This document shows, piece after piece, positions 5,199 through 49,713 of a stretch of 64,000 bases of DNA. Made by a program: the position numbers and the translations under genes. Every line of letters begins with the position of its first letter. The first letter of the stretch is position 1. Origin of the DNA: an uncultured Bacteroidia bacterium (GTDB lineage: Bacteria; Bacteroidota; Bacteroidia; Bacteroidales; F082); the NCBI GenBank assembly GCA_902782455.1, contig CACZNA010000007.1, forward strand, positions 3,865-67,864, given 5' to 3'. The notes beneath the pieces were generated by a model, which searched no databases, had not been told where the DNA came from, and saw only the letters and a list, made by a program, of their open reading frames with translations.

Positions 5199-6737
5199 TT
5201 ATTCCTTAACCCACTTCCCCGTTTCCGCGAGGGTCGTTGAGCCTATTGTAACGCCTGTAGTATAAACCTTCCAAACATAAGCCCCCGAAGGCCAACTTTC
5301 GGCATTTATCGAAGTGACATTCTCCGTAATTTCTTTCTTACAAACCAGTTTCCCGGTCAAGTCATAGATTTCCACACGGGCGTTCTGCAAAGCCGTGCGA
5401 ATATTCAGCACATCCTTCCCTGGATTGGGATAAACCGTGGCCACAGCAAAGCCATGCGAATGTGCCTCCTCTATATTCCAAAAATCCTCAAGCGTGATTC
5501 TGTAGACACAATAGTCTGTCGGGCCAGAATCTTTGCCACGGAAACAGCTCAAAATGCAACCTCCTGCCGGACAAGCCGAAATGGTATTGGGAGCCAAACT
5601 TAAGTCGGGCTTGAAGTAAATCTCACTCTGCTTGTTCAAATCTTCGTCCATCAGCCCTACATAGACATTGTAAAATTCCTCGCTTTCCGTTTGCCCAATT
5701 CCTTTGAATAATGGCAAATCCATCCAACCAAGCATAAACACCTCACCATTAGGACTGAAACTCATCCCATAGCCTTCATCCTTACGATAGGGATTGATGA
5801 TGCCAAAAGTCCAATTCACAAGGTTAAAGTCCTCGTCGTAAGCAGTCATAATTACATTCGTTTTTTCATCCTGATATTCCCATGCGTCTTCACTGCCAAC
5901 CGAATAAGTACGACCGTTGTATGGATTGAATCGCATTGAGCAAACATCGTTGGAAATAGCGTATAACCATCCACTCATATTCTGGTTGGAATAGTGTACC
6001 CTACCCACAGAATCAGCGACAGAGATTGTGTTAAGGTCGGCATCAAGGGTGTAACAATCAAAGTCATACCTCTCATTCATCAAAATGAAGCGAAAACCCA
6101 AAGAATCAGGTGCCGAGAAGAAAAAGTTGGTCAAAGAGGCTTTATAGTCGCGAAACACCCTTTCCTTTATTATATTGCCCTCATTGTTAAACTTTACCAA
6201 GTGCATGGATTCTTTTTGGTCAATCATCCAAAGACTGTCAACGGGATATGACAAAGTCAGGCTACCGTCCTTTGAAAAAACGGGGTAAATCATATTCGTG
6301 TAAAACTGGGTTACTGGTGGATGGTTGAAGTCAGACCCGTCCCAATTATAACTTGTGTATGTCAGTGACAGGTCTTCTGGGGCAATATCAACGACACAAA
6401 GTAGGGGAAGCGTGTCGTTGTCGTCTAAGCGGAGCGAGACATAACGAAACTTACCATTCATGAAATTGGCATGTCGCCATAATTCCAGTCGATTATCGGG
6501 CAAACTGATGGAATCAAGGATTTCGCCCTCGTATGTGATTTTCATCAGTGCACGGCTTCCTGATTCGGTTGTTGCAAATGCAAGAAAAGCATTCGCGTCG
6601 ATACAATACACACTTGTAACCCGAACATAATCCGACCTGTATATTACTTCGAGGTCTTGAGGATACTCTTGCGCTTTCATCGTCACCCCTTCCGCCATTA
6701 GGAGCGCAAGCAGGGTGAAAAGTCTAATGTTTTTCAT
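5199..6737 (-). CDS. T9SS cargo protein of unknown function (paralog of 8779-10458)
   Basis: Signal peptide MKNIRLFTLLALLMAEGVTMKAQ. CTD VYPNPGKDVLNIRTALQNARVEIYDLTGKLV..GAYVWKVY..ETGKWVKE. Shares FNxEGNI and pre-CTD EEAH..G motifs with 8779-10458. Confidence 0.8.
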   Translation of the reverse strand: MKNIRLFTLLALLMAEGVTMKAQEYPQDLEVIYRSDYVRVTSVYCIDANAFLAFATTESGSRALMKITYEGEILDSISLPDNRLELWRHANFMNGKFRYVSLRLDDNDTLPLLCVVDIAPEDLSLTYTSYNWDGSDFNHPPVTQFYTNMIYPVFSKDGSLTLSYPVDSLWMIDQKESMHLVKFNNEGNIIKERVFRDYKASLTNFFFSAPDSLGFRFILMNERYDFDCYTLDADLNTISVADSVGRVHYSNQNMSGWLYAISNDVCSMRFNPYNGRTYSVGSEDAWEYQDEKTNVIMTAYDEDFNLVNWTFGIINPYRKDEGYGMSFSPNGEVFMLGWMDLPLFKGIGQTESEEFYNVYVGLMDEDLNKQSEIYFKPDLSLAPNTISACPAGGCILSCFRGKDSGPTDYCVYRITLEDFWNIEEAHSHGFAVATVYPNPGKDVLNIRTALQNARVEIYDLTGKLVCKKEITENVTSINAESWPSGAYVWKVYTTGVTIGSTTLAETGKWVKE

Positions 6738-6770
6738 TGTGTTTTAGTTTTGATGTTTTGCCATTCAGTT

Positions 6771-7026
6771 GCGCTTGTCGTCGCTGCGAGGAACGAAGCC
6801 GTCCAAATAATTCGTTTCATTCGCCTAATTCGCCGTTTTATCGTTATCGGCGAATTGAACGGATTTCGCGAATTGGATTGCTTCACTTCGTTCGCAATGA
6901 CGCGAAGCGACCACAAAACTATAACAAAAAAACCATCGAAAAAACAAGATTTGAGCCAAGTACAGATTTTTGTTTTCAACTCATTTTGATAATCAACGAG
7001 TCACGATAAAATAATACAATTTTTTC
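6771..7026. repeat. Mosaic intergenic cassette repeat, full copy
   Basis: Same module order as 3976-4228. Fills the whole spacer between the regulator stop (7027) and the cargo start (6737). Confidence 0.85.
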
Positions 7027-8685
7027 TCACTCGACAAGCGCAGAAATCGGGTCAAAATCGGCCTTGTTTTTGAGGTTTGAGCGGTATTTCGCCACGGTGT
7101 TTTCGCTCAGGCCGAGCAGGTCGGCCTCTTCCTTGATGCGGAAGCCCAGGAACGACAAAATGACGAGATGCGTTTCCGTCTTGTTGAGGTCGGGATAGGC
7201 CGATTTCATTTTCCCAATGCCTTGGGGATAGGCCGCCTCGAAAGCCTCGATGATGCGCTGCAAGCGGTCTTTCTGCCCCGATTGGTAAATCGCCAAAACT
7301 TGTTGGTTGAGCATCTCCTTCTGCTGGGTAGTGAGTTGCTCCAACTCAGTTTGCAGTTGACGTTGCGCCTCGCGGAGTTTCAGCGTTTCCAATTCCTTGT
7401 TCTTGCGGTAGCGCAATGCAGTCCAAAGCACTGCCATCAGCACGATGACCAACAGGGCTATCCACAAATAGAGGCGGTAACGTTTCAACTGCTGCTCGCT
7501 TTCCAAACGCTGGATTTCCAACTGCTTGTCGTATTCTTCCTTCACTTGCGCCACGGCTTTTTGCTCCGCACCATAGTCGGGGCTGGAACTCAGCAACTTA
7601 TCAGCATAAATGGCGGCATTGGCCTCGTCGCCCAAGGCTTTGTAGGAACCGTAAAGACGCTTGTATAAGAAGGTGAGGTCGCTACTCCTTTGAGTCATTT
7701 CCTCGGACATCAAACCATAATGAATGCAAGAATCGTATTGCTGCAAATCGAAATAGGCACGGCAAATGTTTTCTGTCAACTCATATTGATAACTTTTCGC
7801 CATTGGAGAATGGACAAAACGCAAGTCATCCAATCCCTTTTGGCTCTCCGCTATGCTCTGATGAAGCATATTCTTACCATCATCTTCTTTTTCAAAATGT
7901 TGTGTCTCAAAACAATAGAGATAGTAATCGGCTAATGCACTATGGAAATAAGAAGCCTCAACCGTGTCGCCGATGATTTCTGCGGAGTGAAGGCCGATTT
8001 GATAATACATCAGGCAACTGTCGTATTCGCCGAGAAGCAGATACGCCATCCCCAACGGAAAGGCTGTGATAAGCCGATTTCGATGATACTGTTTTTCAGC
8101 ATAATAGCCATCGGCAAGTTTCAAGTGATCGACACCTTCGCGATGGTATCCCGAGTTGGTGTAAGACATGCCAAGCCGCTGATGGATAGCATATTTCAGT
8201 CGGTCGATTTCGTTCTTTTCATCGGTGGGCTTGAGCGAAAAGCGCACAAAACGCTCGTCCACATGCTGGCATTGCTTGATGCTTTGCAAAGCCTTCAAAC
8301 GGTAGTCAAGCACATGTTGCTCACCCAAGTTTTTCACTTGGGCCATACGCGACAAAATCCAATAAGTCATGGATTCGAAATATTTGTCTTTTCCACCAAC
8401 AAATTGCTTTTCAGCTACTTGCATCAACGAATCGAAGTCATTGTATTTGCGAAGGCCATCATTCACCTTGGCCCGCAGCAGGCAATAATGCGCCCGTTCC
8501 TTCTCCGAAAGGGCTGAAACATTCAGCGTGTCAAGGATTTGCCTTGCGCTGTCGAGGTTGGTTTGGTAGAAACACTCCACGCGATAGAGCATGTCCTCCT
8601 CGGGCGGTGGAGGCGTTTCGCGCTTGGAGCAAGCAGCCACCAACACGACAAAAAGCAAAAGCCATATAAAAAACATGCGTTTCAT
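7027..8685 (-). CDS. Membrane-anchored one-component regulator: lipoprotein signal, TPR-like helical domain, single TM, coiled coil, C-terminal LuxR/GerE-type HTH
   Basis: Has the lipobox MKRMFFIWLLLFVVLVAAC|SK and the TM segment LYLWIALLVIVLMAVLWTALRY. The C-terminus PDLNKTETHLVILSFLGFRIKEEADLLGLSENTVAKYRSNLKNK is LuxR-like. A TACCTTTG box lies just upstream of the ATG. Confidence 0.65.
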   Translation of the reverse strand: MKRMFFIWLLLFVVLVAACSKRETPPPPEEDMLYRVECFYQTNLDSARQILDTLNVSALSEKERAHYCLLRAKVNDGLRKYNDFDSLMQVAEKQFVGGKDKYFESMTYWILSRMAQVKNLGEQHVLDYRLKALQSIKQCQHVDERFVRFSLKPTDEKNEIDRLKYAIHQRLGMSYTNSGYHREGVDHLKLADGYYAEKQYHRNRLITAFPLGMAYLLLGEYDSCLMYYQIGLHSAEIIGDTVEASYFHSALADYYLYCFETQHFEKEDDGKNMLHQSIAESQKGLDDLRFVHSPMAKSYQYELTENICRAYFDLQQYDSCIHYGLMSEEMTQRSSDLTFLYKRLYGSYKALGDEANAAIYADKLLSSSPDYGAEQKAVAQVKEEYDKQLEIQRLESEQQLKRYRLYLWIALLVIVLMAVLWTALRYRKNKELETLKLREAQRQLQTELEQLTTQQKEMLNQQVLAIYQSGQKDRLQRIIEAFEAAYPQGIGKMKSAYPDLNKTETHLVILSFLGFRIKEEADLLGLSENTVAKYRSNLKNKADFDPISALVE

Positions 8686-38289: not shown

Positions 38290-39618
38290 TCAAATCTGTT
38301 TCTTTCGCCAATCCGCTTTCCAAATATACACCAGCGAAATCAACCCAATGGAGATGTTGTAGACCCACTCAGCAGTCCATACGCCGGCGATAGTGGAAGT
38401 CTTGGTCATGAGGAAGACATAGATGATGTAGGCGATAAGGATGCCAAACTCCAAGGCCATGGCCGCAGTGGTGTTGCCCGTGCCCGAAACGGCCTCGAAG
38501 AAGGTCATGGAGAAAGCCCCCAACAGCGTGGCAACACAAATCACATAGACCGAGGGAATAGCCGCCTGCGCCAAAGCCATGTCGTCAGTATAAATCTGCA
38601 AGACTAAATGCGGAATGGCCGCCACCACAGCGACCAAGACAAGACCACACAAGAAACTGTTTTTCACCACTTTCCAGATAGTGGCCATCACCTCGTTGCT
38701 CTTGCCCTCGCCAATGATGCGACTCGTCAGGGTGTTGGCGGTCGAAGCGAAAGCGATGCCCGGAATGATGAGAATCATATACGTACTTCGCACCACCGAC
38801 GAAACGCCGATGGCCGTCTCGCCCATCTTCTCAATCATCACGAAGAAAATAAACCACGCGCCAAAAGAGAACAGCCGCTGAATCATGCTCGGGAAGGCCA
38901 CCTTGAGGATGTCGCCCATCAAGGCGGGCTGCCATTGGTGCCAACGGAACATGCCGTATTCCTCATGCGGGATTTTGATATAAGTGTAAATCCAGAAGAA
39001 GCAGAACGCCGTAATTTCGGCCATCAGCGAGGCCAAGGCCGCGCCGCCGATACCCATTTCGGGCAAACCCGCGTTGCCGAAAATCAAGGCCCAGTCGAAA
39101 AAGATGTTGACGACGGCCATGATGATTGTTGAGAACGTGATGACTTTGGTGCTGCTGATGCCGACATAGAACGAGCGGAACAGAAAATTGAACACCACGA
39201 AGAAGATGCCGAACTGCCTGAACCTCAGGTACTCGCTCGCCGCCGCATAAATATGCTCCGACTCGATGATGATGTGCAACAACTTGTGGCTGAAGAAGAA
39301 AAGAATGCTGAACAAGAAGATGCCCAAGCCCAGCACAAACAAAGCCCCATGTTGGAACACCACACCGATTTTACTGAAGTTGCCCTCACCGAAGCGTCGC
39401 GCGATAAAGATTTGGATGCCCACGGCAAAGCCCATCGCCAAGGTGGTGAAGACGAAATAATACAGGCCCGCCATCATGGAGGCACTCAGTTCGTTGGTGC
39501 CAAGATGACCGAGAAAGGCTGTATCAGTGAAGGTGATGATGGTTTGCGCAAGGTTGCCCAACATGATGGGATATGCAATGCGCCAGATTTCCTTGTTGGT
39601 AACGGTGGATTTAATCAT
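38290..39618 (-). CDS. MATE family efflux transporter
   Basis: 12-TM profile. N-terminus IWRIAYPIMLGNLAQTIITFTDTAFLGHLG is typical of MATE. Confidence 0.85.
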   Translation of the reverse strand: MIKSTVTNKEIWRIAYPIMLGNLAQTIITFTDTAFLGHLGTNELSASMMAGLYYFVFTTLAMGFAVGIQIFIARRFGEGNFSKIGVVFQHGALFVLGLGIFLFSILFFFSHKLLHIIIESEHIYAAASEYLRFRQFGIFFVVFNFLFRSFYVGISSTKVITFSTIIMAVVNIFFDWALIFGNAGLPEMGIGGAALASLMAEITAFCFFWIYTYIKIPHEEYGMFRWHQWQPALMGDILKVAFPSMIQRLFSFGAWFIFFVMIEKMGETAIGVSSVVRSTYMILIIPGIAFASTANTLTSRIIGEGKSNEVMATIWKVVKNSFLCGLVLVAVVAAIPHLVLQIYTDDMALAQAAIPSVYVICVATLLGAFSMTFFEAVSGTGNTTAAMALEFGILIAYIIYVFLMTKTSTIAGVWTAEWVYNISIGLISLVYIWKADWRKKQI

Positions 39619-39738
39619 GGGGCAAAATTAGTCAATTCTTCCGCACCTCTAAATCAATTTTCTCAGTTTTCACAATTTTTCTTTCTCAATATCCCGAAAA
39701 AATGTATTTTTGCCTCTGTCAAAAAAAGAACTTCAAAA

Positions 39739-42165
39739 ATGAAAAAAATAATTGTACTACTGCTAACCACCTTATTGTTGGGTTTTGTATGTGCCGAAAG
39801 ACTTCACGCCCAACTCATTGTGACTGATGCCTCTACCTTAAACGGTTGGACCGCAGATTCGTTGGTCAGGAACATTCTCTTGGACAATGGTGTCACCATT
39901 TCCAATGCCAGATTCAATGGTTCAAATAGGGTCATTGATTGTAACAGCATTGGAATATTCGAGACAGGAAACACACCTACAAACCTAGGTATAGAATCCG
40001 GCTTGCTCCTTGCCTCTGGAGGGATAAGTGTAGCTGTAGGCCCGAATACCGACGAAAGTTTTAGTGTGCCTACAACCTGCATGTCATATTATGATAATGA
40101 TTTAGCTTCTATTGCATCGGATGAGCCAAATGATGTTGCAGTGCTTGAGTTTGATTTTGTCCCATGGGATAACATGTTGTCTTTCAGCTTTGTGTTCGGT
40201 TCCGAAGAATACATGGAATATGTCGGCATGGGTTATAATGACGTATTCGGTTTCTTTGTGGAAGGCGCCAATCCGGCGGGTGGGTATTACGACCACCAAA
40301 ACATGGCCTTGATACCGGGAACGACTGAGGTCGTCAGCATAGATAACGTGAACCTATACCACAATTCAGCTTATTACATTGACAATACAGGCGGTGCCTC
40401 CATTCAATTTGACGGGTTTACGACTGTGATTGAAGTAAGCTTCGATGTGATTCCCATGTCGAATTACCATATCAAAATGGCCATTTGCGATGTTGGTGAC
40501 GACATGTATGATTCGGGAGTCTTTTTAGAGGCACACAGTTTTACCACAAACCTCTCCTACAGTATGACGATTGACGATTGGATTTACACGGAAATCCCTG
40601 AAAACCATTATTTCTGCTCCAATCAAGCCGTAGAATTCAATACGGTGACCAACTGGAATTACGATGACGTGGTGTGGTATTTCGGCGACGGCACATCGGC
40701 GCAAGGGGAACAGGTCACACATACCTATAGCGCCGACGGCTTTTACACCGTGACCAATGTGCTTCACAATCCTCATAGAGACATGGACTCAATCTTTCTT
40801 ACCAAAGAAATAGAAGTCAGAACACTTTCTTCAGAAGAGCATGTCACCTCATGCGACAGCTACGAATGGTATGGAACCACCTATACGGAGAGCGGCACTT
40901 ACACCCATGTCGTGCAGACACCCGGAACCTGCGACAGCATCCTTGTCTTGAACCTTGAAATCGGCAACAGCTTTAGTTCTGAGCAGGATGTGACCGCATG
41001 TAACAGCTACAATTGGCGAGGAACCACCTATACGGAAAGTGGCACATACACCGATTTTGTCACGTCGCCCGGCGCTTGCGACAGCACCTTTGTGCTGAAT
41101 CTGACCCTTGGCCATGATGTCCAAAGCGACACCACGGCGGTCACGTGCGATGCGTTCACTTGGCACGGCACCACTTATACAGAATCGGGCGACTATCCCT
41201 ATTTGACCCAGACGGTTATGGGGTGTGACAGTTTGCTCACCTTGCATCTTACGGTAGGCCATGAGCAAATCCATCCAACAGAAGAAGAGGTAACTTGCGA
41301 GAACTCATTCACATGGCATGGTCACAGCTATTTGCACGATGGTGTTTATTACGACACCATAACGGATGCCGCTGGATGCGACGAAATCTATTCGCTTGAC
41401 CTTACTTTTGTGGAGGCATACAACACCAATTTAATTGAGACGGTATGCGACAGTTATCCGTGGCCGTCGGCTGATGGCGGCTATCTGATCGAATCAGGTC
41501 ATTATAAATATGAAGGCACGACACAAAGTGGATGTGACAGCATCGTCGACTTGGATCTTACCGTGTATTACACACCTTCACCCGCCGGAATCCACCCCGT
41601 GGATACCACAAACAAAGCCCCACACTGGGTTATCACTGCTACCGAATTCCAAATCAACGCATACGATTTCCAAATTTGGGACAACAACCCCATTTGCGGT
41701 TGGGACACCGTCACGTGGAGTTTCGAAGAGCCGGTGCAATGGCTGCTTGAGCCTTACGGCGATAAGGGCAAACACTGCAAGATGTATGTGCTGAACTATA
41801 TGAGCGACACCGTTTGGCTGACAGCCCGCGCTTTCAACCATTGTGCCCCCGAGGGCATTGAGCAAAGATACTGGTTCGTCTGTTCGTTTTATGGACTTGA
41901 AGAAACAGGTTCAGAGACTGCTGGATTCAACGTCATCCCCAACCCTAACGATGGCCAAATGAGGCTTTCTTTCGACCATCTTACAGGCAAAGTGGGTATC
42001 AAGGTGTATGACATGATGGGGAGTTTGGTAGATGATATCCAAACCTACAATGGCCTTGACCATAACGAATTGGAATACAGTTTGAAAGGTCGCACAAAAG
42101 GAATCTATTTCTTTGTTGCTACCGGAAAAGAGGGCACTGTGGCCAAAAAGGTGGTCATTCGATAG
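39739..42165 (+). CDS. T9SS cargo: choice-of-anchor-L domain + PKD-like domain + five ~43-aa Cys repeats + type-A CTD
   Basis: Start at MKKIIVLLLTTLLLGFVCAERLHAQ. The ORF-track 5' extension overlaps the MATE gene on the other strand. Choice-of-anchor-L-like motifs: FGSEEYMEYVG..NDVFGFFV..FDGFT..ICDVGDDMYDSGVFLEAHSF. PKD-like: WYFGDGTS. CTD: IPNPNDGQMRLSF..IKVYDMMGSLV..GIYFFVA. Confidence 0.8.
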   Translation: MKKIIVLLLTTLLLGFVCAERLHAQLIVTDASTLNGWTADSLVRNILLDNGVTISNARFNGSNRVIDCNSIGIFETGNTPTNLGIESGLLLASGGISVAVGPNTDESFSVPTTCMSYYDNDLASIASDEPNDVAVLEFDFVPWDNMLSFSFVFGSEEYMEYVGMGYNDVFGFFVEGANPAGGYYDHQNMALIPGTTEVVSIDNVNLYHNSAYYIDNTGGASIQFDGFTTVIEVSFDVIPMSNYHIKMAICDVGDDMYDSGVFLEAHSFTTNLSYSMTIDDWIYTEIPENHYFCSNQAVEFNTVTNWNYDDVVWYFGDGTSAQGEQVTHTYSADGFYTVTNVLHNPHRDMDSIFLTKEIEVRTLSSEEHVTSCDSYEWYGTTYTESGTYTHVVQTPGTCDSILVLNLEIGNSFSSEQDVTACNSYNWRGTTYTESGTYTDFVTSPGACDSTFVLNLTLGHDVQSDTTAVTCDAFTWHGTTYTESGDYPYLTQTVMGCDSLLTLHLTVGHEQIHPTEEEVTCENSFTWHGHSYLHDGVYYDTITDAAGCDEIYSLDLTFVEAYNTNLIETVCDSYPWPSADGGYLIESGHYKYEGTTQSGCDSIVDLDLTVYYTPSPAGIHPVDTTNKAPHWVITATEFQINAYDFQIWDNNPICGWDTVTWSFEEPVQWLLEPYGDKGKHCKMYVLNYMSDTVWLTARAFNHCAPEGIEQRYWFVCSFYGLEETGSETAGFNVIPNPNDGQMRLSFDHLTGKVGIKVYDMMGSLVDDIQTYNGLDHNELEYSLKGRTKGIYFFVATGKEGTVAKKVVIR

Positions 42166-42274: not shown

Positions 42275-43783
42275 CTACTTCGCGTGAAGCGCAGCGTATG
42301 CCTTCCCCAAATGCTCCGTAATATCGCCAGCAATCAAAGCCTCCTGCCCTATCTCCTCGGCGGCAAGGTCGCCAGCAAGGCCGTGTAGATAAACACCCAA
42401 CACAGCAGCTTCCTCGGGCGAATAGCGTTGCGCCAAGAGCGAGAGGATGATGCCCGTCAAAACATCGCCGCTGCCCGCCGTGGCCATACCGGGATTGCCT
42501 GTGGTGTTGAAGAAGATGGTGCCGTTGGGCATCGCAACCGAGGTATGCGCGCCTTTCACGATGACGACAAGGTTGTATTTGGTGGCCAGTTCACGCTGTT
42601 TTTCAAGCTGTTCAAACGAGGTCGAGGACTTTCCCACCAAGCGTTCAAACTCCTTGGGATGGGGCGTCAGTATCGTTTTGGCGGGCAGGAACGGCAGCCA
42701 AGTCGGGTTGTCGGAGAGGATGTTCAAGGCATCGGCATCCATGACTAACGGCACTTGCACTTCTTGGATTAAGCGTTTCAAGGCGCGGACGGTTTCCTCC
42801 GCCTTGCCCAAACCTGGACCTACACCCACAGCGGTATAAGCATCCAATTTGCCGAACATCGAAAAGCAGGTTTCGGAATCGTCGCCGTCAATCATCGCCT
42901 CGGGGATAGAGGTTTGCATGGGCAGTTGGGCCATCTTGGGCAGGTGGACGCTCAAAAGCCCCACGCCCGTGCGCAGACAGGCTTTCGCGCCAAGCAAAGC
43001 CGCGCCCGTCTTGCCTTCGGAGCCGGTAATCAACAGGGCGTGGCCGTATGTGCCTTTGTGGGAGTATTTCGTGCGGTTGTGCAGTATCGGCTTCACCATC
43101 GCCTTGACGGTCAGGAGGTTGTTGGTCTCCACCTCTTCCAGATAGCGTGGATGCAAACCGATGTCCAAGACCTCGAAGCGACCCACATACGGGTCGTTTT
43201 CGGGCAACAGGAAGGCCAACTTGGGGTTTTGGAAGGTCAGCGTGTAATCGGCCTTGAAGATAAAGCCCAAGGCACTGGGTTGGTCGGCGAAGAGGCCCGA
43301 AGGGATGTCGATGGCCACGCGGATGGCCTTGCTTTGGTTGAGGTAGGCGATCAGGTCGGCGGTCATGCCTTGCGGCGGACGGTTGAGGCCCGAGCCGAAG
43401 ATGGCGTCGACCACCACGTCGTTGGCATCGACTTTCGGGAAGTCGTCCTCGGTGAGGATGTCGAACATCGGCACCTTGGTCTCGTTCACGAGGCGGTAGT
43501 AGTTCACCTCGCAGTCGTGGCTCATACGGTCGCTGTAGCGCACCATAAACACCTGCGGGACAATCTCTTGCTCGTTGAGCAGTCGGGCCACCACGAGGCC
43601 ATCGCCGCCGTTGTTGCCCATGCCGCAGAAGATCTTGATGGTCTTGTCGCGCGGCGTCCGGCGATAGAGCCACTCAAAGACTTTCGTGGCCGCCCGTTCC
43701 ATCAGGTCGACGGACTCGATGGGTTCGTTTTCTATCGTGTATTTGTCCGCTTCGCGGATTTGTGGTACTGAGAGGATTTTCAT
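42275..43783 (-). CDS. nnr: Bifunctional NAD(P)H-hydrate repair enzyme (epimerase + ADP-dependent dehydratase)
   Basis: N-terminal YjeF_N (CGMGNNGGDGLVVAR). C-terminal carbohydrate-kinase-like part (KGTYGHALLITGS.., GNPGMATAGSGDVLTG). Confidence 0.9.
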   Translation of the reverse strand: MKILSVPQIREADKYTIENEPIESVDLMERAATKVFEWLYRRTPRDKTIKIFCGMGNNGGDGLVVARLLNEQEIVPQVFMVRYSDRMSHDCEVNYYRLVNETKVPMFDILTEDDFPKVDANDVVVDAIFGSGLNRPPQGMTADLIAYLNQSKAIRVAIDIPSGLFADQPSALGFIFKADYTLTFQNPKLAFLLPENDPYVGRFEVLDIGLHPRYLEEVETNNLLTVKAMVKPILHNRTKYSHKGTYGHALLITGSEGKTGAALLGAKACLRTGVGLLSVHLPKMAQLPMQTSIPEAMIDGDDSETCFSMFGKLDAYTAVGVGPGLGKAEETVRALKRLIQEVQVPLVMDADALNILSDNPTWLPFLPAKTILTPHPKEFERLVGKSSTSFEQLEKQRELATKYNLVVIVKGAHTSVAMPNGTIFFNTTGNPGMATAGSGDVLTGIILSLLAQRYSPEEAAVLGVYLHGLAGDLAAEEIGQEALIAGDITEHLGKAYAALHAK

Positions 43784-43795
43784 AATTCTAACAAA

Positions 43796-44350
43796 TTACT
43801 TCATTGAAAGAGTTATGTCTTGCAATGCGCAAACAATATTATTCTTTTTGCTAATCAATTGAAGAACATCTTCTTCTTCCACTGATTTATTTTCAATCGC
43901 TTTGTTATAACAATTTGCTAAACACTTACAGAAATCAAATATTTCTTCGGCAACTCCCGACTCCTTATTCAGATTGAATAAAGATAATCTTGAAGAATAA
44001 AATGTATCAACATATAAAAGTGCTGAAGACAATAACTTTTCAGTACAAACATCGTTTTCATTAGTAATAATCCTAGAAAAAGCATCTATTTCACTCTTCC
44101 TAAACTGCATTAGCATCATGTTTTTCTGATACTCCAATTCTTTTCTTGAACGCATTTCATCTTTTTCAGAAACAGCTTTCGTCAATTTCACAAAAACATA
44201 AACATTAATTGCCGTGAGAATTGGCATCATTATTCCATTAAAAATGGTACTGAATTCAATCCATGAATGATTTACGTTGATAGCCAATAAACACAAAATC
44301 ATCATCAAAATAACGAATGCACCCACTATTATTGAAAGGTTCTTCTTCAT
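43796..44350 (-). CDS. Small membrane protein (two N-terminal TM helices + helical cytoplasmic domain), unknown function; partner of 44361-45623
   Basis: LSIIVGAFVILMMILCLLAI and IMMPILTAINVYVFVKL. About 28-30% GC. 10 bp downstream of the T5orf172-like gene and 12 bp upstream of nnr. Confidence 0.6.
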   Translation of the reverse strand: MKKNLSIIVGAFVILMMILCLLAINVNHSWIEFSTIFNGIMMPILTAINVYVFVKLTKAVSEKDEMRSRKELEYQKNMMLMQFRKSEIDAFSRIITNENDVCTEKLLSSALLYVDTFYSSRLSLFNLNKESGVAEEIFDFCKCLANCYNKAIENKSVEEEDVLQLISKKNNIVCALQDITLSMK

Positions 44351-44360
44351 ATCATTTCTT

Positions 44361-45623
44361 TTATGATAGTGTTTTTACAACATTTAATATATCCTTTTCA
44401 TCCAAAGCAAACCATTCCCCTCTTAATCTCTTCTCTCCATAAGCCTTATGTAATGCAGCTTCTATCGCTTCAGCAATAATCCTCGTTGGATATTCTTTGG
44501 CACATAAAAGAACAATGGTTGGTTTTTCACTTTGTAAAGTCCTTTCTCTGTATTCAGGCTTATTTGAAATACCAATTTTATAATAACCATTGGATTCATC
44601 CTTCATTAGATATACATAGCATGATGATTCTTTAGTCTCATTTATATATTCCTTAGTACTTTCATCTTGATATTCATTCTTAAAAACAGCAGGATCAATT
44701 TGAGCACCACATTCAGCCAAAGCTTTTATATATTTTTGAAAATAGAGCTTAAATGTTAATGAAGCAAAGTCGTTTTCTCTTTTTAAATCAATTGGAGCAT
44801 CACCATTTTGAAAATCGCATCTAATTGCAACCAAATTCTCTGAAGCAAATACTTGAATATCCTGAGGCAACATTGAAAAACTCACCTGCTTATAATATGA
44901 ATTACTTGTATTAGATGCTGCTTTTTTTAGTTGATATTCTAAATGTCTATTATTTTCAAAAACAAAATGAAGCGCATCTCCCTTTACAAATTTATGTTGT
45001 GAGAACTCTTTCTTATCAAACTGAAAAACAAATTGCTCTTTTGTATTATCAAGTCGAACGAATGGAAAAGAATAATAATTAGTAGGCTTATCAAAAGGAG
45101 AATATCTTAATTGAAAGGCATCTCTATTATATAACAAATCATTATGCCCACAGCCATGACTCCATACAATCTTTTTATCTCCTTTGAACACATCATCAAT
45201 AATATCATAATTGCAATAATGCTCAATAAATACATTTGCCATTTCTTCAACGCTATCCATTTTTCGGCAGAATACAATATCATCATACAAACGAATTACC
45301 GAAATTTTCGTGTCCAAAATTTTAGTTTCAGAAAAATCATAATATGCTGAGACTGGAATCGTCAAATCAATTTTATATTTTATTCTTGCCAAAGAATACT
45401 TATCAATTGATTTACAGAAAACAAGAGAACCTACTACATCTCCATTTTGGAGTTGATAATAAAAGCCCTGTTGATCATTCATCAAGCCACTTTTATCATA
45501 TCGTATATAGAAATCATCAAAATCATCTACTTGATTTTTAATATCTTCAATTTCTTTACGTTGCGATTCTGAAATAAAATCTCTCAGATAATATTCTTTC
45601 ATTTTTCCTCCTAGCTTTTTCAT
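44361..45623 (-). CDS. Unknown ~330-aa N-terminal region fused to a C-terminal T5orf172/MUG113 (GIY-YIG superfamily) domain
   Basis: The C-terminal CYVYLMKDESNGYYKIGISNKPEYRERTLQSEKP..AIEAALHKAYGEKRLRGEWFALDEKD fits the T5orf172 pattern. Low GC. I recognise no motif in residues 1-330. Confidence 0.7.
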   Translation of the reverse strand: MKKLGGKMKEYYLRDFISESQRKEIEDIKNQVDDFDDFYIRYDKSGLMNDQQGFYYQLQNGDVVGSLVFCKSIDKYSLARIKYKIDLTIPVSAYYDFSETKILDTKISVIRLYDDIVFCRKMDSVEEMANVFIEHYCNYDIIDDVFKGDKKIVWSHGCGHNDLLYNRDAFQLRYSPFDKPTNYYSFPFVRLDNTKEQFVFQFDKKEFSQHKFVKGDALHFVFENNRHLEYQLKKAASNTSNSYYKQVSFSMLPQDIQVFASENLVAIRCDFQNGDAPIDLKRENDFASLTFKLYFQKYIKALAECGAQIDPAVFKNEYQDESTKEYINETKESSCYVYLMKDESNGYYKIGISNKPEYRERTLQSEKPTIVLLCAKEYPTRIIAEAIEAALHKAYGEKRLRGEWFALDEKDILNVVKTLS

Positions 45624-45732
45624 TTAATATTTATGAGAAACAATCCCTTTCAACTCTCTTTAACTAATTGTTCTTCCGATTCATAAAAGACTCCGTGTAT
45701 TATCGACAAGATTTATCTCTCTTGACTTTGCG

Positions 45733-45765
45733 CAAAATTACAAATAAAATCGGGATAAAAGCAAA
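45733..45765 (-). promoter_or_regulatory. Candidate Bacteroidota promoter (TTTG - 21 nt - TAATTTTG) for the low-GC two-gene operon
   Basis: Minus-strand TTTG at 45765-45762 and TAATTTTG at 45740-45733, about 110 nt upstream of ATG 45623. Confidence 0.4.
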
Positions 45766-45780
45766 ACATTCATCGATAGG

Positions 45781-45947
45781 TTGGAAAAAAGTTGCAAAAA
45801 GGGGGTTGAAACAGTGTTCTTCAGCGGAGGCAAAACGATGAACATGTTGGAAAAAAGTTGCAAAAAGGGGGTTGAAACAGTGGAAAAAAGTTGTAATTTT
45901 GCATCGAAAATAGTGGAAAAAATTTGCAAAAAAGCACTGAAACACAG
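45781..45947. repeat. Iteron-like block: two perfect 36-bp repeats separated by 30 bp, then two degenerate ~33-bp units in direct tandem
   Basis: ttggaaaaaagttgcaaaaagggggttgaaacagtg occurs at 45781-45816 and 45847-45882. It is followed by ggaaaaaagttgtaattttgcatcgaaaatagtg and gaaaaaatttgcaaaaaagcactgaaacacag. Confidence 0.85.
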
Positions 45948-46016: not shown

Positions 46017-46190
46017 ATGGCAACGGCAATTAAGGCGATACCGACGCTTTACGGAGATGCTGCCCGTCGCTTCCGCGACATGGCTGACGAGGCGGAGATG
46101 CGATATGAACGTAGCGAAAAAAAAGACAGGGATAAAGACCCGTTTGTCATCGCTATGCGAGAAATGTTGAAGCGTTCTGGTTTGGAATAA
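46017..46190 (+). CDS. Small protein (57 aa), candidate antitoxin for the downstream GNAT
   Basis: MATAIKAIPTLYGDAARRFRDMADEAE.. Preceded by a strong AAAGGAGAAAGG Shine-Dalgarno-like element. 11 bp before the GNAT gene. Confidence 0.5.
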   Translation: MATAIKAIPTLYGDAARRFRDMADEAEMRYERSEKKDRDKDPFVIAMREMLKRSGLE

Positions 46191-46201
46191 AAACCACTCG
46201 G

Positions 46202-46831
46202 ATGAAAGAATCATTTCTTTTGACGCAGTGCAATTTGTCACTACTCACACAAGAAATCATAGATTATTGCTACCCTTTCTCGTGTGGGAAGGATGACGAT
46301 ATGGACGAGTTTTTCAGGAAAGACGCATTGGAATATACCCGTTTCCTGATGGGAAAAACTTATTGTTTTCGCCTGAATGAAGACCCTAGGCGTATTGTAT
46401 GTTGCTTTACCCTTTCTAACGACAGCATCCGTATTTACGATTTGCCGAGTGCCCGTCGCCAAGCCATGTGGAAAATCACTAATCGGGAAAAGATGCTGTC
46501 TCGTTTCCCTGGTGTGCTAATCGGAAGGCTTGCTGTTTCTGTAGATTTTGGCGGGAAAGGCATTGGCTCAGATGCACTTACTTTTATAAAAGAATGGTTT
46601 ACGGAAAAGAGCAACAAAACGGCTTGTCGTTTTTCCATTGTTGATGCCAAAAACGAGCCAGAAGTCCTTCGGTTTTATGAGAAGAATGGTTTCAAGACAC
46701 TATTTCCAAATGAAATAGACGAAGACCTATACACCAAACCGCCGAAAGACGAACAGGAAAAAGCGGAACGCCTATGCCATCCCCGCAAACTGCGCACAAG
46801 GCTGATGTTCCGCGACTTGCTGAATGATTAG
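46202..46831 (+). CDS. GNAT family N-acetyltransferase, TacT/KacT-like toxin candidate
   Basis: ..FSCGKDDDMDEFFRKDA.., GRLAVSVDFGGKGIGSDAL.. (acetyl-CoA loop), IVDAKNEPEVLRFYEKNGF. Confidence 0.6.
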   Translation: MKESFLLTQCNLSLLTQEIIDYCYPFSCGKDDDMDEFFRKDALEYTRFLMGKTYCFRLNEDPRRIVCCFTLSNDSIRIYDLPSARRQAMWKITNREKMLSRFPGVLIGRLAVSVDFGGKGIGSDALTFIKEWFTEKSNKTACRFSIVDAKNEPEVLRFYEKNGFKTLFPNEIDEDLYTKPPKDEQEKAERLCHPRKLRTRLMFRDLLND

Positions 46832-46977: not shown

Positions 46978-47571
46978 TTACAAATTGTTTATAGTTCTTT
47001 CCAATTTCTCTTTCCCCTCAAACAATATCCCCGTGATGCCCAAAGCATTCGCCGCCGCCACATTATTCGGGTTGTCATCAATGAAAACCGTTTCCTCGGC
47101 CTTGATGCCGAAGCGTTGCAAGGCCAGTTGGAAAATCCTCGGGTCAGGCTTCATCACCCGCTCGATGCCCGAAATCACCATATCCTCCATGAGGTTGAGG
47201 ACGGGATAGACAGGCCTCACCAAGGCAAAGGTTTCCTCAGACCAGTTGGACAGTCCAAACACACGGAAGCCTTTGGCTTTCAGTTCCTTGATATATTCCT
47301 CCATACCAGGAATCTGTCCGCCCATCATCTTCATGAACTCGCCGTAATACAGCTCGATTTCCTTCTTCCACTCGGGATGCTCGGCAATGAGTTCAGCCGT
47401 GCCTTCCGCCACGGGACGACCGTTGTCGTGTTGGGCATTCCATTCGTAGGTGCAGATGTTGGTGAGGAACCATTCGGCCTTGTCCTTGTCGCCGAAATAA
47501 GGGTCATAGAGATAATGCGGGTTCCAGTCTAAGAGCACGCCGCCATAGTCGAAGATTATGTTTTTGATCAT
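46978..47571 (-). CDS. HAD-superfamily hydrolase (subfamily IA-like)
   Basis: IIFDYGGVLL (DxG/DxD-type motif I), GLSNWS, VFIDDNPNNV. Confidence 0.8.
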   Translation of the reverse strand: MIKNIIFDYGGVLLDWNPHYLYDPYFGDKDKAEWFLTNICTYEWNAQHDNGRPVAEGTAELIAEHPEWKKEIELYYGEFMKMMGGQIPGMEEYIKELKAKGFRVFGLSNWSEETFALVRPVYPVLNLMEDMVISGIERVMKPDPRIFQLALQRFGIKAEETVFIDDNPNNVAAANALGITGILFEGKEKLERTINNL

Positions 47572-47573
47572 AG

Positions 47574-48437
47574 TCAGTTCTTTTCGTTGATTTGTTTTTG
47601 TTCGTCTTCTTTTGCTGCTTTCAGTTTCATGGCCTCTTTCGCGTTCAGCGAAGTCACCACGGGCTTCCCCGTTTTGGTTTCCAACTCCATGCGGGCGTGG
47701 CGGGCAATCTCGCCGCCTTGACGTGCCACATCCATGTGCTCGCCAAAAGTTTCGGGGTTTTGGCTTTCTGAAATATCCTTGGTGGAGAGTTCAGCCAGCA
47801 TGTTCAACACCAGTTCGCGGTTAGTCATGTTGTCGCGCAGGTTTTCTTTCTTCAAACCTTTGAATTGCTTGTATTCCTTGGCAGTCATGCCTGACCATGT
47901 GCTGTAAATGATGTCCGTCAAAGTCGCGAATTGAACTCCTTCCTGCAAACCACGTTTCTTCCATTCATCCGTCAAGTCCTTTCGGATTTCGATCGACTTC
48001 AGCCGCTGGTTAATCCAAGCATCGGAATAACCCAAACGCTTGTAGTCCATCATAGCCTGCTCAATGCTCAGTTCAGGGTCTTGCATTTGGTCAAGTCGTT
48101 GTGCTGCCACTTGCGCCATCCATTGCTTGAAAGGTTCAGCCTTGGGGGATGGAATGGATTGGATAAGACGAAGAAGTTGCTCTGTATCAGCGACATCCGT
48201 CTTGTATCTCTTACCATCAGAAGACTGCATTTTCAGTTGGTTACAATTTGTAACCGACTCGTTTCCTTCCTTTATCAATCTGTGTTTCAGAACTTTCCAA
48301 TAGTTACGAGGATTGGAACTTTCGGTTAATACCGCAATTACATCCACTATGGAAAAATACCATTTCTCTGCCTCGTCGTCCCAAAGGGCGCGAACTTTCT
48401 TTTCCTCGAAAAGCTGTATTTTATTGTGCTGGGTCAT
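47574..48437 (-). CDS. Bro-N domain / DNA-damage-inducible protein D (DinD)-like protein
   Basis: IQLFEEKKVRALWDDEAEKWYFSIVDVIAVLTES.NPRNYW is Bro-N-like. The helical C-terminal part matches the DinD layout. Start at MTQHNK. Confidence 0.65.
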   Translation of the reverse strand: MTQHNKIQLFEEKKVRALWDDEAEKWYFSIVDVIAVLTESSNPRNYWKVLKHRLIKEGNESVTNCNQLKMQSSDGKRYKTDVADTEQLLRLIQSIPSPKAEPFKQWMAQVAAQRLDQMQDPELSIEQAMMDYKRLGYSDAWINQRLKSIEIRKDLTDEWKKRGLQEGVQFATLTDIIYSTWSGMTAKEYKQFKGLKKENLRDNMTNRELVLNMLAELSTKDISESQNPETFGEHMDVARQGGEIARHARMELETKTGKPVVTSLNAKEAMKLKAAKEDEQKQINEKN

Positions 48438-48472
48438 AATTCCTTGATTTTGCCGCAAAGTTAGCGAAAAAT

Positions 48473-49675
48473 TCAATACAAAAACCCGAACAGCCAAAGC
48501 GGAATCTTGTTGCCGCGGCCAAACTCAACGCCGTCGATGGCCAAAAAACTGTCCGGAAGGTCTTTGATTTGCTCGAAACGCTTGTCGGCACCGCCCACTT
48601 CGAAGGTGTATTTCCCGTCAACGAGGAAATCGCCTTGCTTCGGCGCGTTGAGTTCGTGATTGTGACAGGTCTGGTTGTAGAAATAAGTCTCCCTCACCGC
48701 CCCGATGGCCGGATTGGGATTGAAAGCGTACATCAAGTTGGTGTTGTCCAAAAACAACTTTTCCGGCGACGACATCTGCTTGAAGGCCTTGACGCGGGTC
48801 TTCAACTGCCCCAACAAAGCGCCTCTTTCCAACAAGTCCAGCAACTTCAAGCCCTGCTCGCGGCTGGTTTCAAGTTGGCGGTAAAGTTCTTCCATCTTCG
48901 GCACAAACGGCACTTGCAAAGCAATGATACCCAGCAACTTCTTCAACTTCTGAATCGTTATGTATTCCACTTTGTCCACAGCCGGCATATCCAATTCGAT
49001 GGTCTGCTGCGCCACTTCCATCAGTTTGGCGTGGAAGCCCTCCAAGTCCTCCTTGTAAAACGGATAGTAGCCGTGACGACAATAGCGCTCAAAATGCGGC
49101 AAAATGCGCACATTCTCGGCTATTTCCGAGGCAATCTGCACATGGCGGGTCAAAATGTCGTCCAATGACAGTTTTTCGTGATGCAGAATGTCCTCAAACA
49201 TCAGATATTCACGAAACGAGAGGCCGTTCATCGTGTGCATAGCCACGCGGCGCGACAGGTCGCCTTCGCCTTTGGTCAATTTCAGCATCGAACTGCCCGT
49301 AAACACCACATTCATCGTCGGATAGTCGTCGTAAATGTTCTTGATGTAGGTCTGCCAATGCTCGTATTTGTGTACCTCGTCAAGAAAAAGGTGGGTACCT
49401 CCGTGCGTGTAATGGTATTCCACCAAATCGGCGAGGGTGTTGTTGGCAAACCACATATTGTCCAACGACACATACAGCACCTTGCTCTCGTCTGTAAAGG
49501 CCTCCTTGATGCGTTGCTTCAGCAGCGTCGATTTCCCCACGCCTTTCGGCCCTTTGATGCCGATGATGCGGGCGTTCCAGTTGATGCTGTGCAGCAGTTC
49601 CCTTTGGAATTTCATACTTACCTGCTGCACACTTCGCTTTGAGTTTCTGTAGAGTATGTCCGGGCTTTCATTCAT
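48473..49675 (-). CDS. AAA+ ATPase with C-terminal DUF4143-like domain
   Basis: IIGIKGPKGVGKSTLL (Walker A), LFLDEVHKY (Walker B). Start at MNESPD. A TATCTTTG box lies at 49708-49701 on the minus strand. Confidence 0.75.
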   Translation of the reverse strand: MNESPDILYRNSKRSVQQVSMKFQRELLHSINWNARIIGIKGPKGVGKSTLLKQRIKEAFTDESKVLYVSLDNMWFANNTLADLVEYHYTHGGTHLFLDEVHKYEHWQTYIKNIYDDYPTMNVVFTGSSMLKLTKGEGDLSRRVAMHTMNGLSFREYLMFEDILHHEKLSLDDILTRHVQIASEIAENVRILPHFERYCRHGYYPFYKEDLEGFHAKLMEVAQQTIELDMPAVDKVEYITIQKLKKLLGIIALQVPFVPKMEELYRQLETSREQGLKLLDLLERGALLGQLKTRVKAFKQMSSPEKLFLDNTNLMYAFNPNPAIGAVRETYFYNQTCHNHELNAPKQGDFLVDGKYTFEVGGADKRFEQIKDLPDSFLAIDGVEFGRGNKIPLWLFGFLY

Positions 49676-49713
49676 AATTCCCTCCTTTGTTTTGACGCCG
49701 CAAAGATACAAAA

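Follow-up and report, generated by a model that had tools for sequence, protein, structure and literature searches.

A low-GC T5orf172 nuclease-like gene and a facultative membrane-protein partner form a candidate modular defence cassette at a recombination hotspot of rumen Bacteroidales

How should a small block of foreign-looking DNA between two housekeeping genes be read when it couples a nuclease-like protein to a membrane protein? The window analysed here, a stretch of 64,000 nucleotides from an uncultured Bacteroidia bacterium of the Bacteroidales lineage F082 (GenBank assembly GCA_902782455.1, contig CACZNA010000007.1, positions 3,865 to 67,864 of the forward strand), carries such a block at positions 43796-45765, referred to below as the cassette. 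Its large gene encodes a protein ending in a T5orf172-type domain of the GIY-YIG nuclease superfamily, and its small gene encodes a protein with two transmembrane (TM) helices. An initial annotation had proposed that the pair is a defence module; what it observed is borne out, and its interpretation finds partial support. With moderate confidence, we regard the block as a modular, undescribed anti-phage or anti-mobile-DNA cassette whose N-terminal module is exchanged between alleles.

The two co-directional minus-strand open reading frames (ORFs), 420 and 184 aa long and 10 bp apart, lie where they had been placed, and the small ORF ends 12 bp upstream of nnr, as reported before. The block has a GC content of 30.0% against 48.7% in the rest of the window, of which it is the lowest-GC 1.9-kb stretch, and the earlier hand count of 17 G+C in the 60 letters of 43801-43860 is exact. 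The length of 420 aa holds as a mechanical ORF call, but the true start is probably the ATG at 45602, giving 413 aa, because homologues begin with MKEY and a GGAGG lies upstream of 45602; an identical database protein (P0001) also has 413 aa. Residue numbers below follow the 420-aa form. The host-type promoter described earlier, TTTG-N21-TAATTTTG, was found again upstream of the large gene; this motif is more frequent in the window than expected (10 occurrences against 2.4), and the upstream promoter stretch is common to the alleles of loci L001 and L012. Neither a promoter nor a terminator was found between the large and the small gene, and no terminator between the cassette and nnr, so the cassette promoter probably also drives nnr in this genome. 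No integrase or transposase is present among the ORFs of the interval, as had been noted.

Residues 336-418 of the large protein match two Pfam profiles above their cut-offs, MUG113 (49.5 bits, cut-off 22.3) and T5orf172 (34.9 bits, cut-off 20), which bears out the earlier domain call and, on profile evidence, places the protein in the T5orf172/MUG113 branch of the GIY-YIG superfamily. The domain contains Y338, Y347-K349-G351, R359, H392 and E403 (within RGEWF), and Y338, K349, G351, R359, H392 and E403 are invariant columns in a 33-sequence alignment. The invariant Tyr, Arg and Glu positions align with the GIY-YIG Tyr motifs and with the Arg and Glu kept in the nuclease Odn, by analogy with which the invariant residues of the domain would be catalytic.

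AlphaFold2, run with 33 homologues, gave a high-confidence model (mean pLDDT 84.9) with three predicted domains, running from an alpha/beta N-terminal region through a β-rich middle domain with a long helix to residue 304 and a disordered linker to the T5orf172 domain. Most relatives of the large protein align from about residues 184-215 onwards. The first ~330 aa had been described as free of recognisable motifs, and residues 1-330 indeed match nothing in Pfam, NCBIfam or PADLOC and lack a CxxC motif, while PHROGs matches cover only residues ~313-419. The full-length profile matched no PDB sequence, the best PDB Foldseek hit of the model was not significant (E=0.03, IalB), and fold matches in BFVD cover the T5orf172 domain only (T5orf172, MUG113 and GIY-YIG proteins). 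By Pfam or PDB Foldseek, no modified-base reader of the SRA, EVE, YTH, ASCH, PUA or EndoIII-like kind was detected. A phmmer search with residues 1-310 against 1.84 billion representatives returned 12 matches, 10 of them already in the T5orf172-family set, and no fusion of this region to another effector was evident among the 12.

For the genomic setting of the cassette, we compared relatives in which the proteins Tex, HAD and nnr share 90-97% identity with their counterparts in the window. The close relatives derive from rumen metagenomes and include the rumen metagenome-assembled genome RUG13196 (L029), a species-level representative whose large protein is 90% identical. The HAD-nnr interval is a recombination hotspot in rumen Bacteroidales, being empty in some genomes and occupied in others by the large gene with or without the small gene or by several unrelated cargoes (Table 1). 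Since the occupants of the interval vary between relatives, the cassette is an insertion into an otherwise two-gene operon and one of several cargoes. No boundary repeats or att-like sites were seen at the cassette junctions. The initial description of a foreign-composition islet in a variable, defence-type neighbourhood is upheld by these empty sites and alternative cargoes, and by the recent exchange and the Abi, ATPase and TIR-like neighbours described below.

Between the window and L001, synonymous divergence (dS) is ~0.004 in the cassette against 0.40 in nnr and 0.61 in HAD. From ~45816, where the 33-nt repeats border the tract, the two sequences are nearly identical across both genes, and this identity fades gradually within the first ~500 nt of nnr. 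Because a cassette of such low divergence lies amid divergent flanks and the tract decays within nnr, the cassette moved recently by horizontal exchange through homologous recombination. Compared with the alleles of L009, L010, L012 and L138, cassette dS is 1.0-2.3 and that of the flanks 0.35-0.5; these alleles are far older than their host lineages. All parts of the cassette are under purifying selection, with a ratio of nonsynonymous to synonymous divergence (omega) of 0.02-0.11 in the T5orf172 domain, 0.06-0.16 in the middle domain, 0.24-0.52 in the N-terminal module and 0.18-0.34 in the small gene. As dS is saturated in the T5orf172 domain, gene conversion does not account for the conservation of this domain, which stems from selection acting on the protein.

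The alleles differ by module. The N-terminal module (residues 8-183) falls into at least 5 types that are mutually 21-38% identical, and the T5orf172 domain is 85-95% identical between allele types. In the recombinant allele L138, residues 8-183 are 95% identical to those of the solo allele P0030 of L012, and the middle domain, T5orf172 domain and small gene are 91%, 95% and 89% identical, respectively, to those of L010, with the breakpoint at residue ~183/184, the boundary of the module. This recombinant identifies the N-terminal module, presumed to be the specificity or sensor part, as an exchangeable unit, and the small gene as co-segregating with the middle-plus-nuclease chassis.

Similar features would be expected of a selfish, homing-endonuclease-like element that cuts alleles lacking it, or a nearby site, and is copied by recombinational repair together with adjoining sequence, the small gene being a passenger. 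In phages, T5orf172 proteins act as free-standing homing endonucleases that bind DNA with one end and carry the nuclease at the other; recombination exchanges their domains, and their genes lie between conserved ones (PMC10448857; PMC8263062). In line with such behaviour, the HAD-nnr site has empty alleles, the cassette spread recently with a co-converted tract reaching into nnr, its N-terminal module is swapped, in L146, L153 and L158 the place of the cassette is taken by a further repeat protein of GIY-YIG-like type, and family members abut a core gene at three hotspots. Presence/absence polymorphism with flank co-conversion was indeed found at HAD-nnr, but plain homologous exchange of an accessory gene predicts the same. 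Single-site homing should keep the recognition domain, whereas the N-terminal modules at this one site share only 21-38% identity, and no CapR, DUF723 or DUF4397 zinc finger or other known DNA-binding domain was detected in the large protein by Pfam or alignment. Cargo other than nucleases is found in the hotspot too. At the 5′ end of nnr, the empty L142 does not differ from the filled L012 and L138, which means that no immunity polymorphism exists, and purifying selection acts on all domains and on the conserved membrane partner. In IMG/VR, all 41 matches on phage contigs are confined to the T5orf172 domain, and no contig was found to carry a relative of the N-terminal or middle region or of the small protein; one full-length relative (P0048) has a phage-like context. 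Homing, the main alternative, is in our judgement a possible account of the locus and not a probable one.

Relatives sharing the middle and T5orf172 domains occur at 77 loci across Bacteroidota and, in rumen Bacteroidales, are always of low GC (0.30-0.36 in loci of 0.44-0.50). In 8 species there is a second hotspot, where the gene for pyruvate:ferredoxin oxidoreductase (PFOR) is followed after 18-126 bp by a family member. The contrast between a conserved nuclease domain and a variable remainder recurs there: PFOR is 81-99% and the T5orf172 domains are 81-97% identical, and the remainders 24-61%. These members lie at about 5400-8000 in each of L026, L030, L037, L043, L048, L060, L063 and L064, and the next gene varies, being absent or encoding a HEPN-like protein, Abi_C or an ATPase like PDC-M29A or PD-T4-4_A. 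The immediate neighbours of 60 relatives include 10 AAA_15/AAA_21 ATPases resembling PD-T4-4_A, PDC-M29A, PDC-M47A and AriA, 4 Abi_C proteins and one each of AbiGi, Abi_2 and SLATT_5, and a TIR-like and a DUF2971 protein lie downstream of two relatives. The AbiGi homologue (L020:4841-5725; PADLOC 3e-28) is itself of low GC and lies directly upstream of its T5orf172 relative, and the ATPases downstream of relatives appear to have small downstream partner ORFs of their own. We also asked whether the T5orf172 relatives supply a component that PADLOC multi-gene candidates lack (PDC-M29 and PD-T4-4 among others); they gave only weak PDC-S57 matches, and the idea was rejected.

A more novel role for the large protein can also be considered. 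T5orf172 proteins could be chromosomal 'hotspot nucleases' seated beside a core gene (nnr, PFOR or tRNA_edit) at the edges of variable regions, where their breaks may drive the turnover of adjacent defence cargo and the swappable N-terminal module may set the cut site, comparable to phage homing nucleases, which mark boundaries of genetic exchange; we consider this role doubtful. The domain might also have been domesticated as a DNA-binding regulator that controls its neighbours, including nnr, rather than cutting. Such a change has a precedent in CapR of PLE, a T5orf172 protein repurposed as a repressor (PMC8096241; PMC10448857), and it would suit both a cassette promoter that probably drives nnr in this window and the fact that various defence genes lie downstream of family members. 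Against it, the catalytic-type residues do not vary, and the very low omega of their domain would fit a working enzyme; nnr also functions without the cassette in empty-site genomes, and we hold a regulatory role to be quite unlikely.

The small protein is predicted to be all-helical, with TM1 at residues 2-25, TM2 merging into a long helix at 30-96 and a three-helix bundle thereafter, in agreement with the two N-terminal hydrophobic helices and helical tail recognised before. Its cytoplasmic part begins with a conserved juxtamembrane helix (LMQFRK.EI..F), followed by the more variable three-helix bundle. Because TM2 (MPILT..N..VFV) and the juxtamembrane helix are the best-conserved parts across 72 family members, the alignment suggests that the membrane element has a function beyond plain anchoring. 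The protein has no match in Pfam, NCBIfam, PHROGs or PADLOC, its PDB sequence profile has none, and PDB Foldseek of its model returned generic helical bundles only; after a profile search its family comprises 75 clusters. As a distant relative we rejected DUF7935, encoded by a host-like gene (GC 0.51; one TM helix) that follows large-gene relatives in L020-22 (hhalign probability 0.2).

At the HAD-nnr site, the small gene trails the large gene by 7-16 bp in every closest-clade allele (at least 7 alleles). At a second chromosomal locus (SIR2/ORF6N...tRNA_edit; locus 2), the large gene P0040 is likewise succeeded by a gene for a small-protein homologue (42% identity, E=2e-45), and the pair therefore travels as a unit. 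Three further pairs are suggested by size-matched contigs (P0142/P0044, P0143/P0045 and P0139/P0038). The proposal of a two-gene module thus stands in so far as the pair recurs at a second locus, and fails as a fixed two-gene system, both genes being found apart.

The wider contexts of the small-protein family are varied. In L227:166-1629, L229:4145-5615 and L231:196-1666, a 204-aa homologue lies 36-40 bp after a ~270-aa KilA-N protein with a DinD-like C-terminal region, a linkage that ties the 2-TM family to a Bro-N/KilA-N/T5orf172 domain network. In L224:5001-5591 and L232:4268-5591, the 2-TM gene is a low-GC insert (0.28-0.29) in loci of 0.45-0.48; the gene before it encodes a WG-repeat lipoprotein or a low-GC 191-aa protein with one TM helix, and an MNT-HEPN pair is nearby.

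Several observations weigh against a dedicated defence cassette. The large gene P0030 is intact and alone at the same HAD-nnr site, and the collection lists this solo form in 25 blocks (24 contigs read); P0041 is a solo large gene at locus 2, after a Bro-N gene, and P0048 is full-length and solo beside phage-type recombination genes (Sak, PD-(D/E)XK). Conversely, small-protein members of 32-38% identity directly follow ~270-aa KilA-N proteins (L227-231), and members of 41-42% identity stand without a T5orf172 gene, upstream of a conserved 690-aa gene (L224-226, L232-234). The two genes are not obligate partners. The initial annotation had counted a poorly conserved partner against its own proposal, and this applies in part, because both genes occur without each other (the large one as P0030, P0041 and P0048, the small one with KilA-N or alone). 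Some hotspot cargo, for example the RHS-repeat lipoprotein, has no connection with defence; homing endonucleases likewise show empty sites, recent spread and swapped domains; and with omega below 1 throughout and dS saturated, positive selection on the N-terminal module is not demonstrated. As no named system matches, the term defence rests on guilt by association and evolutionary signatures.

The separate occurrences also raise the question of whether each gene is a module that works on its own, the two simply being found side by side often in defence islands, with one a restriction-like nuclease and the other a membrane protein acting, for example, in superinfection exclusion or abortive infection. 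Besides the occurrence of either gene without the other, the small gene can be a solo low-GC insert, and PADLOC lists T5orf172 and Bro-N/KilA-N-type proteins as single-gene candidates (PDC-S57, PDC-S13 and PDC-S04). Full independence is harder to reconcile with gaps of 7-16 bp lacking an intervening promoter or terminator, with the recurrence of the pairing at two unrelated loci, with the co-segregation in L138 of the small-gene type with the middle and C-terminal chassis, and with the fact that most small-gene copies at the loci examined directly follow a T5orf172 or KilA-N protein, which belong to one network of phage-derived DNA-binding domains. Independence in this sense is conceivable, though we would not expect it. 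Since each gene occurs without the other, each is a module in its own right, and T5orf172-plus-2TM is one recurrent pairing. In a less radical novel reading than that of hotspot nucleases, the 2-TM protein may be a shared membrane hub for interchangeable DNA-recognising partners, either a T5orf172 nuclease or a KilA-N protein.

A tight two-gene operon amid toxin-antitoxin modules (GNAT here, MNT-HEPN near relatives) could also be an addiction pair in which the small membrane protein neutralises a nuclease toxin. A type II toxin would be expected always to occur with its antitoxin, whereas intact solo large genes are common both at the same site and at locus 2, and the N-terminal module of solo P0030 is 95% identical to that of a paired allele; a downstream antitoxin that is a membrane protein would in addition be atypical. 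We judge an addiction pair very unlikely.

Returning to the modular defence cassette as the preferred reading, we propose that the large protein would be a single-chain nuclease in which the exchangeable N-terminal module (residues 8-183) sets recognition, of foreign DNA, a DNA modification or a phage protein, and in which the middle domain and the invariant T5orf172 domain form a constant cleavage chassis. The co-transcribed 2-TM protein would be a facultative partner co-segregating with the chassis, and might tether or gate the nuclease at the membrane, where phage DNA enters, or alternatively serve as a second membrane effector. The cassette would spread by homologous recombination in the flanking core genes and not by an integrase of its own. 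An abortive-infection mechanism, as first suggested, would be pure inference.

Table 1. Features of the cassette and its surroundings in the window, and occupants of the HAD-nnr interval in the loci compared
Feature	Position or locus	Strand	Remark
nnr, NAD(P)H-hydrate repair enzyme	42275-43783	-	core gene on right side of hotspot
Small ORF (184 aa)	43796-44350	-	mechanical ORF call
Small gene, cytoplasmic part, residues 61-184 and stop codon	43796-44170	-	
Small gene, membrane part, residues 1-60 (TM1 and TM2)	44171-44350	-	conserved motif MPILT..N..VFV
Large ORF (420 aa)	44361-45623	-	mechanical ORF call
Large gene, probable 413-aa form	44361-45602	-	ATG at 45602; P0001 has 413 aa
T5orf172/MUG113 nuclease domain, residues 335-420	44364-44621	-	
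Variable linker, residues 306-334	44622-44708	-	312-331 predicted disordered (pLDDT below 50)
Middle domain, residues 184-305	44709-45074	-	β-rich with long helix; conserved in Bacteroidota relatives
N-terminal module, residues 8-183	45075-45602	-	hypervariable, exchangeable, mixed alpha/beta
Cassette promoter, Bacteroidetes type	45733-45765	-	-33 TTTG, 21 nt, -7 TAATTTTG
33-nt direct repeats (two perfect, two degenerate)	45780-45944		between divergent cassette and GNAT toxin-antitoxin promoters
Short putative antitoxin (~57 aa, ATG at 46017) and GNAT acetyltransferase (46202-46831)	46017-46831	+	co-resident cargo
HAD-family hydrolase	46978-47571	-	core gene on left side of hotspot
HAD-nnr empty	L149, L150		HAD stop overlaps nnr start (ATGA)
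HAD-nnr with short spacer only	L140, L142, L143, L157, L168		
HAD-nnr with T5orf172 gene and small gene	window, L001-8, L009, L010, L029, L138, L218-219		
HAD-nnr with T5orf172 gene alone	L012-15		
HAD-nnr with GNAT toxin-antitoxin only	L139, L148, L161		no T5orf172 cassette
HAD-nnr with AAA_14/DUF4143 ATPase	L141, L152, L162		PADLOC candidate PDC-S01
HAD-nnr with RHS-repeat lipoprotein	L145, L147, L156, L161		
HAD-nnr with 588-794-aa low-GC protein	L146, L153, L158		GIY-YIG-like core, many repeats

Among the alternative occupants of the hotspot, the 588-794-aa protein (L146:1830-3596, L153:1071-3203, L158:642-3026; GC 0.34) has a central core VYxYEF...VYVGRT...R..EH flanked by ~10 repeats of ~37 aa (W.Y..C..EA.KY....EF...S.AY..A.KNGW.D.Y.WL), an architecture like that of repeat-rich phage homing endonucleases, and no Pfam or PADLOC match. 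The RHS occupant (L145:3602-4924, L147:785-2035, L156:3648-4913, L161:1024-2334) resembles a lipoprotein, is 416-440 aa long and of low GC, and combines RHS/YD-type repeats with the conserved C-terminal sequence HESLFF.DEHGNCIAHIQWMP; it has no defence annotation. The nominally empty sites L142:4842-5001, L143:4839-5001 and L168:4846-5001 hold a ~155-160-bp element with a GC-rich hairpin (GGCGGC...GCCGCC, then GAAAGC...GCTTTC) and AAAAC/GTTTTG-rich arms, which may be a small MITE or REP-like element.

Of the neighbours listed by the initial annotation, the GNAT, Bro-N and ATPase genes are present; its 'iteron-like block' resolves into four 33-nt units, and DUF4143 is not reported by Pfam at E<=0.01 in the window's own copy of the ATPase. 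The unit, GTTGGAAAAAAGTTGCAAAAAGGGGGTTGAAAC, occurs in four copies in tandem register within 45780-45944, and L001-8 carry one copy. Its GTTG...GAAAC ends suggested a CRISPR-like reading, which we rejected: the repeats are tandem and degenerate, lack CRISPR-type spacers and lie in a promoter region. The Bro-N protein (47574-48497) is a near full-length match to PADLOC candidate PDC-S13 (1e-137) and the AAA_14 ATPase (48473-49711) matches PDC-S01; the two mechanical ORFs have 25 bp in common. At locus 2 (L016-19), the solo T5orf172 gene is immediately preceded by a Bro-N homologue (68% identical), and Bro-N homologues are also found next to HAD or nnr in L143, L144 and L151. On the other side of the cassette, a mechanical 970-aa ORF (39253-42165) probably starts later; its relatives are ~808-aa choice-of-anchor-L/PKD/Por-secretion-tail proteins, and the gene is far more variable among relatives (57-82% identical) than nnr.

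The cassette is a credible member of the defence-island nuclease candidates, with unusually clear population-genetic evidence, and candidate systems of this general kind are numerous. Should it prove to protect against phages, rumen and gut Bacteroidales, which experiments cover poorly, would gain a defence family with N-terminal and middle domains of no known fold and a 2-TM partner family of 75 clusters that has no Pfam model. If the 2-TM protein is a membrane hub, a new family of membrane-coupled immune modules would follow, and if the large protein is a homing-like nuclease, such elements would shape accessory-gene turnover in bacteria and not only phage genomes. The natural recombinant L138 marks the exact exchange point of the specificity module, easing the design of specificity swaps, and the locus is a clean natural defence-type hotspot in a two-core-gene operon, with empty sites, several cargoes and a datable recent transfer.

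Among catalogued systems, the nearest is PADLOC PDC-S57, an unvalidated single-gene T5orf172 candidate that shares the T5orf172 domain and the association with defence islands, but only profile positions 5-92 of 212 match (E=8e-5, 20 bits) and the remaining architecture differs; ten relatives likewise match it only partially and weakly. No mention of PDC-S57 was found in the literature searched, and the main text of PMC9973331 does not mention T5orf172. In PADLOC-DB v2, no named two-gene defence or Abi system is hit by both proteins, the small one having no hit and the large one the partial PDC-S57 match, so that the earlier decision to assign the pair to no named system is sustained. Kiwa (KwaA/KwaB), Zorya and lambda RexAB co-encode a small membrane protein with a cytoplasmic DNA-acting or DNA-sensing protein. 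The cassette resembles them in this architectural logic only: there is no sequence relationship, their PADLOC models hit neither protein, and the cassette partner has only 2 TM helices and is facultative. ICP1 Odn (Gp88) and the phage T5orf172 homing endonucleases end, like the large protein, in a T5orf172 nuclease domain that keeps the Arg and Glu; they also share with it an N-terminal specificity module swapped by recombination and a role in conflicts between genetic elements (PMC8263062; PMC10448857). Unlike them, the large protein is chromosomal in Bacteroidales hotspots rather than phage-borne, neither its N-terminal nor its middle domain is related to RepA_N or to the zinc fingers of CapR, DUF723 and DUF4397 type or has a fold match, and the cassette adds a 2-TM partner. 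The END nucleases of modification-dependent type IV restriction have no membrane partner, and none of their SRA, EVE, YTH, ASCH or iEndoIII folds was detected in the large protein by Pfam or Foldseek; what they share with it is a variable sensor and a conserved nuclease, which can be GIY-YIG, on one chain, and a modular evolution of the arms-race type (PMC12191111).

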